From the NCBI GenBank assembly GCA_963668315.1, contig OY764216.1:864001-928000 (forward strand): DNA of 64,000 nt, given 5' to 3'. Position 1 is the stretch's first letter; each line of letters starts with the position of its first letter. Of the stretch, positions 1,742-10,496 are shown piece by piece. Under the pieces are notes generated by a model. It did not search any database. It had not been told where the DNA came from and saw only the letters and a program-made list of their open reading frames with translations. The stretch is from Spirochaetia bacterium (lineage in GTDB: Bacteria > Spirochaetota > Spirochaetia > DSM-2461). The position numbers and the translations under genes were made by a program.

Positions 1742-5224
<3,483 letters not shown>

Positions 5225-5244
<20 letters not shown>

Positions 5245-5761
5245 ATTCCAGCCAGCCGCCGGCCATGACCAGGTCCTTGTCGTAGGCGCTCAGGGTAAAG
5301 GAGTAGGTCTTCTCTCCCTTGGCGCTTTTGACCGTGATGGTCTGGGTTTCCACATTCACATCGGCTGTCACACCTGTGGTTTCCGGGCCGGAGGAGAGGG
5401 CGAAGATCTCGTCCACTTCCTCTTCCTTGAGCTCGATGGCCATGCAGCCGTTGTTGTACATGTTTCCCCGGAAGATACGGGCGAAGTTGGGGGCGATGAC
5501 CACGGTGTATCCGTTCTCTTCCAGAGCCCAGGGAGCGTGCTCACGGCTGGATCCGCATCCGAAATTGTCCCGGGAGACAATGACGGTGGAGTCTTTCATG
5601 GGCTGGCTCATATGAACGAAGCCGTCCATTTTCAGGTCTTCGAGAAGGTGAGGGCCCATGGCGGCTCTTTCCACTTCGGTCAGGTATTTGGCGGGAATGA
5701 TCTCGTCCGTATTGATATCGCTTCTATCCAGAAAAAGAATCTGTCCTCCGAACTGCTTCAT
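5225..5761 (-). CDS. leuD: 3-isopropylmalate dehydratase small subunit
   Basis: DINTDEIIPAKYL, NFGCGSSREHAPWAL and FARIFRGNMYNNG. The start at 5761 is coupled to the leuC stop (TAATG). Confidence 0.95.
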
Positions 5762-7044
5762 TACATGTACCTCCTGGGATCGGTCAGTTTGCCTTCGATG
5801 GCCGAAGCGGCCGCTGTGGCAGGGCTGCAGAGATGGACCATACCGCCCTTGCCCATGCGCCCGTTGAAGTTTCTGTTGGTCGTGGCGGCCGCGGCTTCCC
5901 CTTCGGCCAGAACGCCGTTGGACATTCCCAGACAAGCACCGCAGGTCGGGTTGGTCAGGCAGGCGCCGGCGTCCATGAAGATCTTCACATAACCCGCTTC
6001 CAGGGCCTCGGAGTAGATCTTGGGAGTGGCGGGGGAGACGATCATTCTCACGTCGTCGGAGATCTTTTTGCCTTCGAGGATCTTCGCGGCAATCGCCAGA
6101 TCTTCCAGGCGGCCGTTGGTACAGGAACCCAGATAGATCTGGTTAAGTGGCTTACCCTCCATCTCGGTGATATCCTTAACCACATCGGGGCGGTATTCGT
6201 CGGTTACCTGGGGAACAAGCCGGGAAATGTCGATGGTCCGCTCGTCGGCGTAGACCGCATCGTCATCGCTCCGCCACTTGCTGAAGTCGGCCAGGGCCTC
6301 TTCCTTGCCGGCGTAATCCCCGGCGATAAAGGGCCAGAGGTACTCCACGGTGGTCATGTCGGGGAGACAGACGCCGCTGGTGGCGCCCATTTCCACGGCC
6401 ATGTTGCAGAGGGTAAGCCTGCCGTCCATTCCCAGATTGTCAACGAAGTCGCCGCGGAATTCGGCTACCCGGTTGGTCACGCCGTTGGTGGTCATCATCT
6501 TGATAACCGCCAGGATCACGTCCTTGGCGTAAACGCCCTTCGCGGGAGTGCCGGTTATGGTGATCTTCGTCGTCTCGGGAGACTTGAAAGCGCAGATGCC
6601 CTTGAGGATACCCACTTCCAGGTCGGTCGTTCCCACGCCGGCGGCGAAGGCGCCGAAGGCTCCGTGGGTACAGGTATGGGAGTCGCCCATGATGACCGTA
6701 AAGCCGGGGCGGACGAATCCTTTCTCGGGGAATATGGCGTGGCAGACACCGTTGCGGCCGATATCGAAATAATCCTTGATACCCATGTCTTTCGCCCAGT
6801 CCCTGAGGATCTTGCCCTGTGTGGCGGTGAGAGAGTCCTTGGCGGGAGTTACGTGGTCGATAACGGCTTTGATCTTATCCGGATCGAATACACGGTATTT
6901 GTCTCTTCTTTTAAGATCCAGAATGGCCGGAGGGGTGGTTATCTCATGACAAAACACCCTATCCAGATTCAGAACGTGAACGCCCTCGCAGGGGTTGTCC
7001 ACCAGATGGGATTCGAAAATCTTTTCTACTAAGGTTTTTCCCAT
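5761..7044 (-). CDS. leuC: 3-isopropylmalate dehydratase large subunit (short 427-aa type)
   Basis: DSHTCTHGAFG, [4Fe-4S] ligands in GSCTNGR and CGACLG, and TTNRNFNGRMG. Confidence 0.95.
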   Translation of the reverse strand: MGKTLVEKIFESHLVDNPCEGVHVLNLDRVFCHEITTPPAILDLKRRDKYRVFDPDKIKAVIDHVTPAKDSLTATQGKILRDWAKDMGIKDYFDIGRNGVCHAIFPEKGFVRPGFTVIMGDSHTCTHGAFGAFAAGVGTTDLEVGILKGICAFKSPETTKITITGTPAKGVYAKDVILAVIKMMTTNGVTNRVAEFRGDFVDNLGMDGRLTLCNMAVEMGATSGVCLPDMTTVEYLWPFIAGDYAGKEEALADFSKWRSDDDAVYADERTIDISRLVPQVTDEYRPDVVKDITEMEGKPLNQIYLGSCTNGRLEDLAIAAKILEGKKISDDVRMIVSPATPKIYSEALEAGYVKIFMDAGACLTNPTCGACLGMSNGVLAEGEAAAATTNRNFNGRMGKGGMVHLCSPATAAASAIEGKLTDPRRYM

Positions 7045-8588
7045 TACGCTCTATTCTCCTTTAACTTTTCTATGCCCTCCATACGGGCTACCTTATTAAT
7101 TACGTTGATATAGGCCAGGGCGGAGGCTTCGACGATGTCGGTGCTGCTGCCCGATCCGTGGTAACGGCGGTCCTTGTGCTCCGCGATAATCTTCACTTCG
7201 CCCAGGGCGTTACGTCCTCCGGTCATACCGGCCAGAGAGTAGTCTATCATTTTGACGGATATGCCGACAGCTCTGTCTATCGCCTTGCAGGCGGCGTCCA
7301 CCGGCCCGTCCCCCGTGGCGGCTTCCTGAATCGGCTCGGAGCCCTCATCATGGGTGTTCTGGATTTTAACCGTGGCGGAGGGGATGGAGCCCGTACCGGA
7401 GGTGGTGTTCAGATAGATCATCCTGTATTTATCCGCGGCGTCGCCGTCTATCTCCATCATCGCTTCCAGGTCGTCATCGTATACGGTTCCCTTCTTGTCG
7501 GCCAGGGACAGGAACTTCTGGTAGAACTGGTCCAGATCGTAGGAGTCCTCGGCATAACCGAGAAGGGCCAGGCGGTGCTTGATGATGTGCCGTCCGGAGC
7601 GGCTGGTCAGGTGAAACTGATTGGCCGACAATCCGACCGATTCGGGGGTCATGATTTCGTAGTTGCTCCGGTTCTTGAGAACGCCGTCCTGATGGATTCC
7701 GGAGGAGTGGGCGAACGCGGTGGCTCCGACGATGGCCTTGTTGGGCTGGACGGGCACGTTGCAGATCCGGCTTATGAGGCGGCTGGTGGGCACGATCTCT
7801 TCCGTGACGATTCCCGTCTCCACATTGAAAATATCCTTTCTGGTTTTCATGGACATGACCACTTCTTCCAGAGAGCAGTTGCCCGCCCTTTCTCCCAGAC
7901 CGTTTACGGTACACTCTATCTGCCGTGCTCCGTTGAGCACCGCCATGAGGGAGTTGGCCGAGGCCAGGCCCAGGTCGTTGTGGCAGTGGACGGAAATGAT
8001 CGCCTGGTCGATATTGGGGACCCTGTTGAAGACATCCTTGATAATATCGCCGAACTCGTATCCCACGGTATATCCGACCGTATCGGGGATATTGACCGTG
8101 CGGGCTCCCGCTTTGATCGCCTCTTCCACGATGCGGCAGAGCACATCCCTGTCGGTTCTTCCCGCGTCTTCGCAGGAGAACTCCACATCGTCGCAGAAGT
8201 TGCGGGCATGCTTGACCGCGTCGACGGCCATGCTGATGACTTCGTCATATCCCTTTTTCAGTTTGCTTTCCACGTGCATGCTCGATGTGGCGATAAATGT
8301 ATGAATACGGGGGCGGGGACAATCCCTGAGAGCTTCCCCGCAGGCGTCTATGTCGGCCTTCACCGCTCTTGCCAGCCCGGCGATGATCGGCCCCTTAACC
8401 GTATTGGCAATCTGCCTGACGCTCTCCAGGTCGCCCGGGGAACTGACGGGAAAACCGGCCTCAATGATATCAACATTGAGTTTGGCTAGGGCATGGGCAA
8501 TGACCATTTTCTCTTTAGCGGACAGACTGGAGGACAATGCCTGTTCCCCGTCCCTCAAGGTCGTGTCAAAAATCAATACCTTATCCAT
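7044..8588 (-). CDS. leuA: 2-isopropylmalate synthase
   Basis: FDTTLRDGEQA, HCHNDLG, GLGERAGN, AFAHSSGIHQDG and regulatory domain GDGPVDA...DIVEAS. SD AAGGAG upstream. Confidence 0.96.
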   Translation of the reverse strand: MDKVLIFDTTLRDGEQALSSSLSAKEKMVIAHALAKLNVDIIEAGFPVSSPGDLESVRQIANTVKGPIIAGLARAVKADIDACGEALRDCPRPRIHTFIATSSMHVESKLKKGYDEVISMAVDAVKHARNFCDDVEFSCEDAGRTDRDVLCRIVEEAIKAGARTVNIPDTVGYTVGYEFGDIIKDVFNRVPNIDQAIISVHCHNDLGLASANSLMAVLNGARQIECTVNGLGERAGNCSLEEVVMSMKTRKDIFNVETGIVTEEIVPTSRLISRICNVPVQPNKAIVGATAFAHSSGIHQDGVLKNRSNYEIMTPESVGLSANQFHLTSRSGRHIIKHRLALLGYAEDSYDLDQFYQKFLSLADKKGTVYDDDLEAMMEIDGDAADKYRMIYLNTTSGTGSIPSATVKIQNTHDEGSEPIQEAATGDGPVDAACKAIDRAVGISVKMIDYSLAGMTGGRNALGEVKIIAEHKDRRYHGSGSSTDIVEASALAYINVINKVARMEGIEKLKENRA

Positions 8589-8655
8589 TCCTTACTCCTT
8601 TTCATTCTCCGGGGCTCCATGGCCACGGCTTATTGTTTTCACTGTTGCAATTTGT

Positions 8656-8689
8656 AAAAAAAAGACCCGTCCTCTGGGAGAACGGGTCT
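8656..8689 (-). terminator. Attenuator intrinsic terminator upstream of leuA
   Basis: Minus-strand RNA AGACCCGUUCUC-CCA-GAGGACGGGUCU followed by a U run (A8 at 8656-8663 on +). The single DNA mismatch is a U-G wobble only on the minus strand. Confidence 0.92.
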
Positions 8690-8710
8690 GCAATTTCTGC
8701 TAAACGCTTT

Positions 8711-8797
8711 TTACAGCGACCGTTCTCCATCCACTTCTATCCCTAGTAGAATAATTAGGGAGATGATAATAATGGATAAAACGGATTTATTGTTCAT
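8711..8797 (-). CDS. Ile/Leu-rich attenuator leader peptide, 28 aa (MNNKSVLSIIIISLIILLGIEVDGERSL)
   Basis: 7 Ile, 5 Leu (three are CTA) and 2 Val codons. It ends 21 nt before the terminator hairpin and contains a segment complementary to the terminator 5' arm. Confidence 0.88.
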   Translation of the reverse strand: MNNKSVLSIIIISLIILLGIEVDGERSL

Positions 8798-8807
8798 TTC
8801 GAATATT

Positions 8808-8836
8808 ACCGTACGGCTTTGTTGCAAAAGAGTCAA
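8808..8836 (-). promoter_or_regulatory. Sigma70-type promoter of the leu/cim leader
   Basis: TTGACT (8836-8831), 17 nt, TACGGT (8813-8808), ending 10 nt before the leader ATG. Confidence 0.6.
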
Positions 8837-9143
8837 GGGAAAATCAAGAATGAGAATAAAAAACTGAAAAAGTGATACTAAGATGGTACTATATCTTGAA
8901 CTGTTGAGATCCTCTCTCCTGCCCCTGTGCGGTTTCAATTCTCACTCCCGGGGGCAAAACGCTCCCTCCCATTCCATGGGAAGGCATTAGGATTCCCACG
9001 GGGGGTAAACGCTGTCCCGAAGAGGGGGAGAAGAAAGATTTTTCTATATAATGAACAGGAAATTATATTTTCATTTACCCGGATGCTGGTAGAATTATTT
9101 CAGTCAAGTCTTGAACAAATTCTATATCAAGGAGAATTCAACA

Positions 9144-10496
9144 ATGGCAGGAAAAAAAGTTTTTTTGTATCTGCTTACGGTACTGCTTATCCTTTCGTTT
9201 GCAGTAGGATGCTCGAAGAAAAGTACCGGCGGCAGTGAAGCGGCGGTCAGCTCGGGAAACGGAGAAGAGAGCACCGGGTTCGGTGTCAGCTCCAAAAAAC
9301 TGACAATATCCCTCTGGGACATTGCCACGGAAAATCCCGCGAATACCATTCAGGGAGGAGCTGTTGACCGGTTTATGGCGGCCTATCCCAACATAACCGT
9401 GGAAAACACCCATATCCAGAATGATACCTACAAGCAGAAGCTGATTATTTCCATGAGTTCCGGACAGTGCCCGGACATGTATATTCACTGGGGCGGCGGG
9501 CCGATGAATGAGTATATAGAATCCGGTTTCGCCGTACCTATCACCGACTTGATAAATGAGCATTGCGACGTACCTTTTCTTGAAGCCGCTATCGCGCAGA
9601 GTATGTACAAAGGTGAAGTTTACGCCGTGCCCTTCGGGGGAATCGGCGGAAGCGGAATCTTTTACAACAAGACGATCTTCAACAAGCTGGGCCTGGGCGT
9701 GCCGGAAACCATCGCCGAACTCGAAGATACCTGCAAAACACTCAAGAGCGCCGGCTACATCCCCTTTTCCCTTGCCAACCAGAACAAATGGACCGGTTCC
9801 ATGTATTTCATGTACCTGGCAACCCGCTACGGCGGCGTGGATGAGTTCAATGCGGCCGTGGACGGCACTGGTTCCTTTGAATCTCCTGCTTTCCAGTATG
9901 CGGGCGAAAAGATCCAGCAGTGGGTCAGGGCCGGCTACTTCCCCGACGGCGTCAACAGCCTGAACACGGACGACGGACAGGACAGGCAGCTGATTTACAC
10001 TGAAGAAGCGGCTATGATGCTGCATGGCTCCTGGCAGGCCTCATCCATGAGGAATGATAACGAGGAGTGGTACGAGGCCAATATGGATTTCTTCCGGTTC
10101 CCCGACCTGGCCAGCAGCAATAAACCCCAGAACATTGTGGTGGGAACCTCCATCGGAAACGGCTTCTCCTTCAATATCCATGACGATCAGGATAAGTTGA
10201 ACACCGCCTTCATTCTGGCGACACAGTTCTACAACGACGATACGTATAACAGCCAGCAGCTCGAAGCGGGAACAATCCCCTCCATAGAGGGCATGGGCGA
10301 TACCATTGAAGACCACTGCATGCAGAAAATCTGGGCCGCTTTCTCCAGCGCCAGCAACGTACAGCTCTGGTACGACCAGTATCTTCCCCCGGCCGTGGGC
10401 GAGACCCATAAGAACACATGCCAGGAGATCTTCGGTTTGACCAAGACTCCCGCCGAGGCGAATGCCGAACTTAACAAGGCTATGAGAGAAAACTAG
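9144..10496 (+). CDS. Carbohydrate ABC transporter substrate-binding lipoprotein (family 1)
   Basis: SD AGGAG before ATG 9144, lipobox FAVG-C, and GEVYAVP, IFYNKTIF, AAMMLHGSW motifs. Confidence 0.9.
   Translation: MAGKKVFLYLLTVLLILSFAVGCSKKSTGGSEAAVSSGNGEESTGFGVSSKKLTISLWDIATENPANTIQGGAVDRFMAAYPNITVENTHIQNDTYKQKLIISMSSGQCPDMYIHWGGGPMNEYIESGFAVPITDLINEHCDVPFLEAAIAQSMYKGEVYAVPFGGIGGSGIFYNKTIFNKLGLGVPETIAELEDTCKTLKSAGYIPFSLANQNKWTGSMYFMYLATRYGGVDEFNAAVDGTGSFESPAFQYAGEKIQQWVRAGYFPDGVNSLNTDDGQDRQLIYTEEAAMMLHGSWQASSMRNDNEEWYEANMDFFRFPDLASSNKPQNIVVGTSIGNGFSFNIHDDQDKLNTAFILATQFYNDDTYNSQQLEAGTIPSIEGMGDTIEDHCMQKIWAAFSSASNVQLWYDQYLPPAVGETHKNTCQEIFGLTKTPAEANAELNKAMREN

Follow-up and report, generated by a model that had tools for sequence, protein, structure and literature searches.

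A putative Ile/Leu leader-peptide attenuator upstream of a joint leucine and citramalate operon in Spirochaetia

The window examined here is a 64,000-nucleotide stretch of DNA from a Spirochaetia bacterium. Its minus strand carries an operon in the order leuA-leuC-leuD-tam-like-leuB-cimA, in which neighboring genes touch or overlap, the one exception being a 79-nt gap ahead of leuB. The first gene, leuA (7044..8588), encodes 2-isopropylmalate synthase (NCBIfam NF002084, 782.8 bits versus a cut-off of 748) and is followed by a gene for a leuC-type dehydratase large subunit (5761..7044; NF001614, 548.4 bits versus a cut-off of 385). The frame listed for the small subunit, leuD (5225..5935; TIGR00171, 129.1 bits versus a cut-off of 116.25), probably has its true start downstream of the listed start, as the family match begins at residue 59. 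Inside the operon there is also a gene for a tam-like SAM methyltransferase (4471..5244), whose score against NF002463 (233.6 bits) is below the cut-off of 297. The last two genes are leuB (3312..4391), for 3-isopropylmalate dehydrogenase (TIGR00169, 525.5 bits versus a cut-off of 353.2), and cimA (1742..3385), for citramalate synthase (TIGR00977, 711.3 bits versus a cut-off of 450). No terminator above chance level was called within the operon.

The presence of cimA raised the idea that citramalate is the sole route to isoleucine in this organism, on the grounds that a threonine dehydratase is missing. We rejected this idea. A search with PF00585 found nothing, but the same genome encodes a TIGR01127-type threonine dehydratase whose score of 426 bits exceeds the cut-off, and citramalate therefore cannot be taken as the only route to isoleucine.

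The leuA start lies 67 nt past the U tract of an intrinsic terminator, and a compact set of features precedes this U tract on the same strand. The most distal is a −35-like hexamer (8831..8836), recognized by sequence inspection and by its conserved position in relatives. A 17-nt spacer separates it from a weak −10-like hexamer (8808..8813) that agrees with the consensus at three of six positions. Together the two boxes match at 8 of 12 positions, and this site, with its poor −10, is absent from the calls of a consensus promoter scan. Its conserved position in relatives nevertheless argues for a promoter here.

A leader reading frame of 28 sense codons plus a stop codon follows (8711..8797). 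Its start codon (8797-8795) is located 10 nt downstream of the −10-like hexamer and is not preceded by a Shine-Dalgarno sequence; the stop codon is at 8713-8711. The frame contains seven Ile, five Leu, and two Val codons. Most of these are concentrated in a control run at codons 6-20 (8738..8782), which reads Val, Leu, Ser, four Ile, Ser, Leu, two Ile, two Leu (CUA CUA), Gly, and Ile. The encoded peptide resembles a small membrane helix, in which a hydrophobic core of about 15 residues is flanked by a basic N-terminus and an acidic C-terminus.

The leader also has four segments with competing partners. Segment 1 (8771..8784, codons 5-9) is the 5′ strand of a predicted anti-antiterminator helix. 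Segment 2 (8720..8735, codons 21-26) can pair either with segment 1 or, through its nine 3′ nucleotides (8728-8720), with the terminator 5′ arm. Segment 3 (8677..8689) comprises that arm (8689-8678), and the part of it that serves as antiterminator partner is 8685-8677. Segment 4 (8656..8674) consists of the terminator 3′ arm (8674-8663) and the U tract (8662-8656). The terminator stem has 12 pairs, seven of them G-C, with a 3-nt loop and seven U residues behind it, and the hairpin has a calculated energy of −19.3 kcal/mol. The nine nucleotides at 8728-8720, which belong to the last codons of the frame, are 100% complementary to 8685-8677. Folding also reveals a small hairpin (8705..8717) whose loop contains the stop codon.

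A first-pass annotation of this DNA had reported the promoter-like site, the 28-codon Ile/Leu-rich frame, the 12-bp terminator with its U tail, and the exact 9-nt complement, and all of these are present. Its description of the alternative structures needs revision in two respects. For the anti-antiterminator, it had pointed to short pairings within the control region. The small 6-bp hairpin among them (8740..8761; 8761-8756 with 8745-8740) is recovered both by complement search and by folding, but the main helix in the minimum-energy fold is a different one. In the minimum-energy and centroid folds, 8784-8771 pairs with 8735-8720 to form a 14-bp helix with a 2-nt bulge, and this helix encloses the small inner hairpin. 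The antiterminator, in turn, does include the 9-nt helix but is larger than had been described. The 5′ strand of the small hairpin together with the stop codon (8716-8711) can alternatively pair with 8693-8688, which extends the structure by six more pairs. The extended antiterminator is calculated at −21.6 kcal/mol, compared with −19.3 kcal/mol for the terminator.

The folding potential of this region exceeds what chance would give. The 161-nt leader folds at −49.5 kcal/mol versus −31.2 ± 3.7 kcal/mol for 200 shuffled sequences (z = −4.97), none of which folds as well. When the frame was shuffled 5000 times with dinucleotides preserved, a stretch of at least 8 nt complementary to the 12-nt terminator arm appeared in only 16 cases, which corresponds to a chance probability of 0.0032. 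Comparable structures can be drawn for all four genomes of the genus that we compared (this one and three others). Their antiterminators fold at −16.7 to −23.9 kcal/mol and their terminators at −16.9 to −19.3 kcal/mol. Helices of the same shape between segments 1 and 2 are found in all four with partly different sequence, and that of genome G003 is weak.

The consequences of a stalled ribosome were simulated with a footprint reaching from −15 to +13 nt relative to the A site, on a transcript ending before the terminator 3′ arm. This truncated-transcript simulation was used in place of an equilibrium version with the full-length leader, which did not discriminate in this genome. For every A-site position up to and including codon 20, the probability of the antiterminator is at least 0.63 in all four genomes, and from codon 21 onward (22 in genome G001) it is at most 0.23, again in all four. 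In the simulation, the antiterminator segment stays accessible with the A site as far as codon 20 and no further. The fall from codon 21 thus indicates that the Ile/Leu run of codons 6-20 ends just where the ribosome begins to cover segment 2. On the truncated transcript without a ribosome, the antiterminator still wins, with a probability of 0.86. By the geometry of the footprint, a stalled ribosome would prevent formation of the helix between segments 1 and 2.

A different picture is obtained with the full-length leader at equilibrium. The terminator is favored (probability of at least 0.79) at every stall position but one, codon 12, where the value is 0.32. Clean switching is seen only in G001, at codons 3-13. 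The first-pass annotation had suggested folding the minus strand for mutually exclusive structures, and such structures are indeed present, but the equilibrium fold of the full-length leader favors the terminator at nearly all stalls. Since the terminator stays favored at equilibrium, a decision to attenuate must be kinetic, as it is in textbook attenuators, and kinetics is something that folding calculations cannot prove.

Comparison within the genus shows which parts of the leader are kept. The genomes compared have leuA genes that are 87% identical; the relatives are MAGs that carry the label Spirochaetaceae or Spirochaetales. All four genomes retain the frame with its Ile/Leu run and CUA CUA Gly codons, as well as the antiterminator segment and the terminator. 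The frame remains open over 28 or 29 codons in each, and the sole indel is one in-frame extra CUA. In each genome, a −35 box of the same type precedes the leader start codon by 36-39 nt, and the distance from the −10 box to the start codon is 10, 8, 7, and 8 nt. The flanks upstream of the −35 box and the 44-127 nt between terminator and leuA are not conserved.

Within the frame, the pattern of change is not that expected for a conserved peptide. Variable columns fall at the three codon positions 11, 9, and 14 times, respectively, and the peptide changes freely outside the Ile and Leu positions. This spread over codon positions indicates that the peptide is not conserved as such and that the Ile and Leu codons are. 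Toward the 3′ end, conservation extends to the nucleotide level. The four genomes show no difference in the final 17 nt of the frame, synonymous sites included, and from codon 17 onward all seven codons that are invariant for amino acid are also codon-identical, compared with 150 of 407 in leuA of the same genomes.

The terminator of the four genomes differs by one A-U to G-C exchange at the base and by shifted wobble pairs. An RNAalifold analysis gave a covariation term of only −0.38, with three pairs changed on both sides, all in the terminator; the alignment has too little divergence for covariation, and MAFFT shifts the G003 terminator by one column. Three leader helices, and no others, are retained in the consensus structure: the inner hairpin, the terminator, and a short one at the 3′ end of the frame (alignment columns 74-91). 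The antiterminator is without compensatory support because it is invariant in the four genomes. It had been proposed that aligning the regions upstream of leuA in relatives would reveal both conserved Ile/Leu runs and covariation. The runs, and the leader as a whole, are kept in all four genomes of the genus, but covariation is almost absent. Exact-pattern scans for the leader core found no matches beyond the three congeners in the genome collection and a single match in the metagenome collection, a chance match without a leader.

The codons used in the leader may bear on what it senses. Among 3,123 long ORFs of the genome, CUA is the rarest Leu codon (2.2%), and UUA accounts for 3.4%. The five Leu codons of the leader include CUA three times and UUA once, and its Ile codons are the common AUU and AUC. 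The genome has a single tRNA-Leu(UAG) gene and two tRNA-Ile(GAU) genes. An argument from rare codons is weakened because CUA would be more frequent in an AT-rich leader than in genes.

Custom scripts were used to look across the genome for short frames that carry a run of a single residue and lie upstream of a terminator and a gene. Besides the leu leader, four cognate cases were found, each with a terminator: a Val run before valS, a Tyr run before tyrS, a Phe run before pheS, and a Thr run before asd. The Tyr run is kept in all four genomes of the genus, the Val run in three of four (the frame is lost in G001), and the Phe and Thr runs in each of the three genomes in which pheS and asd, respectively, were found. 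All four of these leader frames begin 7-11 nt past a −10 box. An additional ORF, this one with a Shine-Dalgarno sequence, precedes ilvN-ilvB in each of the three genomes with upstream sequence; Val and Leu are abundant toward its conserved C-terminus. Only a weak terminator is found behind it.

The background of the screen consists of non-cognate matches that include GGDEF proteins, flagellin, sugar-related genes, and others. A relaxed genome-wide version returned 37 rows, and nine further downstream genes taken from it were not cognate, with the possible exception of an aminotransferase after an Ala-rich frame. The agreement between leader composition and gene function at five loci argues strongly for a sensor role of the Ile/Leu frame and against a membrane peptide. 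Given the cognate leaders before valS, tyrS, pheS, and asd, leader-peptide attenuation looks like a general strategy of the lineage.

Related elements also occur outside the genus. We took 5-7.5 kb upstream of leuA from 13 other Spirochaetia genomes, and in eight of them an Ile/Leu-rich short frame and a strong terminator precede the first gene of a branched-chain amino acid operon. That gene is ilvB in G039, G037, G027, and G025 and cimA in G009, G013, G017, and G004. A second LeuA-family match directly downstream of leuA in G039, G027, and G025 is read as cimA. The other five genomes (G031, G030, G036, G032, and G023) have no leader in the sequence that was taken upstream of leuA. In the four ilvB-type leaders, the terminator 5′ arm has the same core as in the leader at 8656-8836.

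A class-wide census was made with a degenerate terminator pattern, which matched in 93 of 401 Spirochaetia genomes and 48 of 155 genera; a reversed-pattern control also matched in some genomes. Twenty-nine loci were analyzed of the 30 matches listed. Eleven, representing the four genomes of the leader's own genus and seven new ones, combine an Ile/Leu-rich frame with a position ahead of leuA, cimA, or ilvB. For the remaining 18, blastx with five query proteins detected no leuA, cimA, or ilvB within 1.4 kb, and these look like unrelated or chance matches. Overall, an Ile/Leu-rich frame and terminator precede ilvB, leuA, or cimA in at least 15 Spirochaetia genomes beyond the genus, and at least 11 of these have the same terminator 5′ arm core.

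Several structural details recur as well, among them the pyrimidine-rich character of the shared terminator 5′ arm. Among 11 other members with an ATG-started frame that were analyzed, the distance from the stop codon to the terminator arm, 21 nt in the present leader, is 20-22 nt in the three congeners and 20-39 nt in the eight members from outside the genus. Where the frame starts with ATG, the terminator arm pairs best with a purine-rich segment that lies at the leader stop codon or spans it. A −35-type box, read by eye, is located 36-39 nt before the leader start in most members of the family, and the short spacing between the −10 box and the leader start codon is similar in relatives. By these sequence comparisons, the element at 8656-8836 is a predicted member of a family that extends across the class and precedes the first branched-chain gene of the operon, whichever gene that is.

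The wider comparison does not support one earlier explanation of the leader's composition. The first-pass annotation had attributed the excess of Ile over Leu codons to the presence of cimA in the operon. The Ile:Leu codon counts in the four genomes of the genus are 7:5, 5:6, 5:4, and 5:5. Ile-dominated leaders are also found before ilvB-first operons.

The region has the structural elements of a classical leader-peptide attenuator: a frame rich in cognate codons, a terminator before leuA, an antiterminator, and an anti-antiterminator. In silico, a ribosome that reaches the stop codon would occlude segment 2. We propose that 8836-8656 acts as a ribosome-mediated transcription attenuator that controls leuA-leuCD-tam-leuB-cimA in response to a shortage of charged tRNA-Ile or tRNA-Leu, and we estimate the probability of this reading at roughly 0.65 from the sequence comparisons and the modeling. 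The same core reading, a ribosome-mediated attenuator before a joint leu and cimA operon, had been put forward from the sequence at the outset; it gains support from the anatomy, the stall geometry, the conservation, and the parallels in the genome and the class.

In the proposed mechanism, transcription would start at or a few nucleotides before the start codon, a position predicted from the distance of 7-10 nt between the −10 box and the start codon. The leader peptide would then be made from a leaderless or near-leaderless mRNA, which fits the earlier remark that the frame has no Shine-Dalgarno sequence and begins near the transcript start predicted from promoter spacing. When Ile and Leu are ample, the ribosome would reach the stop codon and cover segment 2 (8735-8720). 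Segments 3 and 4 would consequently form the terminator, and transcription would end at about 8656. A ribosome stalled in codons 6-20 would instead cover or separate segment 1 and leave segment 2 free. Once segment 3 is made, the free segment 2 would pair with it, no terminator would form, and the operon would be transcribed. This choice would be kinetic and not set by equilibrium. Leucine would probably be sensed mainly at the two invariant CUA codons, read by the single tRNA-Leu(UAG), and isoleucine through the number of Ile codons. Dual sensing of Ile and Leu is the most likely reading.

Other explanations have to be weighed against this proposal. The attenuator could be real but effectively monovalent, responding to Leu alone through rare CUA codons or to Ile alone through codon number, with the other residues serving as filler of a hydrophobic leader. 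Sensing of Leu alone would suit the invariance of CUA CUA in all four genomes of the genus, the third CUA in G001, and the use of the rarest Leu codon next to common AUU and AUC codons served by two tRNA-Ile(GAU) genes. Conversely, the six Ile against only one to three Leu codons in the leaders of the cimA-first relatives G083 and G106 would suit sensing of Ile alone. We consider a monovalent element unlikely, since Ile and Leu runs are both kept in the four genomes and in every branched-chain family leader examined. Moreover, the Ile and Leu codons of the control run lie within codons 6-20, where a stall would free segment 2, and the operon makes both amino acids.

The two further alternatives dispense with the ribosome as sensor. 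In one, the terminator and antiterminator are real but are set by a trans-acting factor such as an RNA-binding protein, a tRNA, or a small molecule, and the frame is incidental. This explanation appears highly improbable: no T-box or riboswitch model matched at E values up to 10, the frame stays open in all four genomes with an indel that is in frame, and leader composition fits the downstream gene at five loci here and across the class. What speaks for it is that the antiterminator is strong enough to form unaided. In the other, the frame encodes a functional small hydrophobic membrane peptide, the hairpin ends a short transcript, and leuA has a separate promoter. The basic N-terminus, the hydrophobic stretch of about 15 residues, and the charged C-terminus would be in keeping with such a peptide, as would the lack of conservation in the 44-127 nt between terminator and leuA. 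No promoter-like site was called in that interval, however, and the peptide has no Pfam match. Amino acid changes are frequent outside the Ile and Leu positions, variable columns are not concentrated at third positions, and conservation at the 3′ end acts on nucleotides, synonymous sites included. In addition, the frames before valS, tyrS, pheS, and asd are equally placed and are rich in the cognate, partly non-hydrophobic, residue. For these reasons we regard the membrane peptide as the least probable of the explanations considered.

Database comparisons place the proposed attenuator outside catalogued families. With E values up to 10, an Rfam search of 8300-9300 gave no family at threshold and no T-box match. 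The best of the 12 matches, with gathering values in brackets, were Thr_leader at 18.9 bits (55), His_leader at 18.9 bits (49), and Phe_leader at 17.1 bits (55), all below gathering, and Leu_leader (RF00512) was not among them. Nine related loci gave no Rfam match at gathering, and the four leader peptides of the genus gave none in Pfam.

The general mechanism is a familiar one. Attenuation by leu and ilv leader peptides, multivalent leaders, and the pheST attenuator are textbook examples of gene control. In E. coli and Salmonella, leuA is preceded by leuL, which encodes a leader peptide of about 28 codons with a Leu run that includes rare CUA codons, and the leader RNA follows 1:2, 2:3, and 3:4 hairpin logic, with an intrinsic terminator as the last element. 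The spirochaete leader is similar in its length of about 28 codons, its position before leuA, its use of CUA among the Leu codons, and the same pairing logic. In contrast, it has no sequence or structure match to RF00512, its Ile codons are as numerous as its Leu codons, it lacks a Shine-Dalgarno sequence, and its start codon is 7-10 nt past a −10 box. The operon also differs in carrying cimA and a methyltransferase gene. A second relevant comparison is the leader of E. coli ilvGMEDA (ilvL), a multivalent attenuator that senses Ile, Leu, and Val. Both leaders mix branched-chain codons in one peptide ahead of an operon that serves more than one amino acid. Unlike ilvL, the spirochaete leaders are nearly without Val (one or two codons) and precede leu genes and a citramalate synthase gene instead of ilv genes, and the sequences are unrelated.

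Some features of the proposed attenuator have counterparts in other phyla. Leaderless leader peptides are predicted before tRNA synthetase and biosynthesis genes in Deinococcus deserti (PMC4007540), and leaderless polycysteine short ORFs are described in mycobacteria (bioRxiv 10.1101/834739). As in these cases, the frame of the spirochaete leader lacks a Shine-Dalgarno sequence and is predicted to begin at the transcript 5′ end or beside it. It belongs to another phylum, and its transcription start is predicted from promoter spacing, whereas transcription start sites in those organisms were mapped. Leaderless mRNAs are also described as common in the spirochaete Leptospira interrogans (PMC5243855).

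Leader peptides with terminators likewise occur before branched-chain and aminoacyl-tRNA synthetase genes outside Proteobacteria. Leader-peptide attenuators are predicted before ilvB, trpS, and leuS of Actinobacteria, in which leuA is instead preceded by a pseudoknot called the LEU element (PMC1262725), and an ilvBNC attenuator is described in Corynebacterium glutamicum (PMC11857589). The spirochaete leader shares this general arrangement with the actinobacterial leaders described there but differs from them in sequence family and phylum. A search of the full-text literature, in which most subscription journals fall outside the scope, found no publication on leader-peptide attenuation in spirochaetes or on cimA. 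The mechanism proposed here is ordinary, and the novelty is in the lineage, the uncatalogued family, and the predicted leaderless start.

Taken together, these comparisons suggest a broader reading, which we hold with about equal measures of belief and doubt. Spirochaetia may carry a class-wide, uncatalogued set of leaderless leader-peptide attenuators in the place that T-boxes occupy in Firmicutes. One ancestral branched-chain module, with a conserved terminator arm and an antiterminator segment spanning the stop codon, would have kept its place in front of the operon as the first gene switched among ilvB, leuA, and cimA. Sister leaders would control valS, tyrS, pheS, and asd in the same genomes.

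If the attenuator operates as proposed, it would provide a concrete and testable mechanism by which free-living spirochaetes, in which gene control has received little attention, link the synthesis of leucine, and of isoleucine by the citramalate route, to tRNA charging. Short frames and premature terminators of this kind go unannotated in spirochaete genomes and MAGs. The family is missing from Rfam, and a model of it would improve the annotation of many such genomes. The set of cognate leaders, which includes those before the leu-cimA operon, valS, tyrS, pheS, and asd and the ilvNB candidate, would also offer a natural system for examining how leaderless initiation is coupled to transcription in attenuation.

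Predicted leader peptides followed by terminators also precede aminoacyl-tRNA synthetase genes of the same genome (G000). Outside the window, valS is preceded by a 30-codon frame in which five Val codons fall within eight, and a terminator follows with valS immediately after it (C1 positions 2931215-2931379, + strand; positions 201-365 of locus L031). The start codon of this leader lies 7 nt past the -10 box. Comparison with other genomes of the genus reveals that the frame is kept in G002 and G003; at the valS locus of G001 the frame has been lost, and the promoter and terminator are retained. Upstream of tyrS, a 23-codon frame carrying five consecutive Tyr codons is followed by a terminator (C1 2988800-2989000, + strand; positions 201-401 of locus L032), and the Tyr run is conserved in all three congeners.

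The pheS leader (C1 197796-197650, - strand, locus L039) consists of a frame with 9-10 Phe and a terminator located between the frame and the gene, and both G001 and G003 retain it. This arrangement ahead of pheS resembles the E. coli pheST attenuator. Because the first start codon in frame shares nucleotides with the -10 box, translation of the leader likely begins at the second. A Lys-rich frame of 28 codons, with four Lys codons within seven, also precedes a terminator upstream of a lysS-like gene (C1 3906515-3906662, + strand, locus L033), for which the extracted open frame spans only 289 amino acids.

Genes of amino acid metabolism are preceded by frames of this kind as well. The asd gene, coding for aspartate-semialdehyde dehydrogenase, lies behind a 24-codon frame with five Thr codons in a row and a terminator (C1 466043-465878, - strand, locus L038), and a run of four Thr is retained in G002 and G003. 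Upstream of ilvN-ilvB (C1 2138080-2135732, - strand) is a 62-codon ORF (2138342-2138154) that has a Shine-Dalgarno sequence and is abundant in Val and Leu in its C-terminal third. Its N terminus and Val/Leu-rich end are conserved in G001 and G002, its length varies through the middle from 36 to 62 codons among the three genomes, and the only terminator-like hairpin seen downstream is weak. We consider this ORF a candidate Val/Leu leader of acetolactate synthase. At locus L103 (C1 255819-255644, - strand), a 27-codon frame with five Ala codons within seven is followed by a strong terminator (-21.3 kcal/mol). The next gene encodes a PRK06855-type PLP-dependent aminotransferase, with weaker matches to alanine aminotransferases, and the frame may be an Ala-sensing leader.

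Within the window, the leu-cimA leader holds a further exact complement of 8 nt, in which the U tract of the terminator and the next 3 nt (8653-8660) match an A-rich stretch starting at the leader stop codon (8708-8715), with a separation of 47 nt. This complement could extend alternative pairings or could arise by chance. In another genus of the same family, the cimA-leuA operons of four genomes (G009, G013, G017, and G004; loci L054-L057) have longer, Leu-rich leader frames of 31-37 codons, and those of G004 and G017 have a Shine-Dalgarno sequence. The frame is followed by a long folded spacer, the terminator is different and weaker, and no obvious antiterminator was found in RNA folds of these leaders.

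The leu operon of the window also includes, between leuD and leuB, a gene for a SAM methyltransferase resembling trans-aconitate 2-methyltransferase (5244-4471, - strand; its score of 233.6 bits falls short of the 297 cut-off). The relative from yeast methylates 3-isopropylmalate. By analogy, it is conceivable that the operon methyltransferase handles by-products of the leu pathway.
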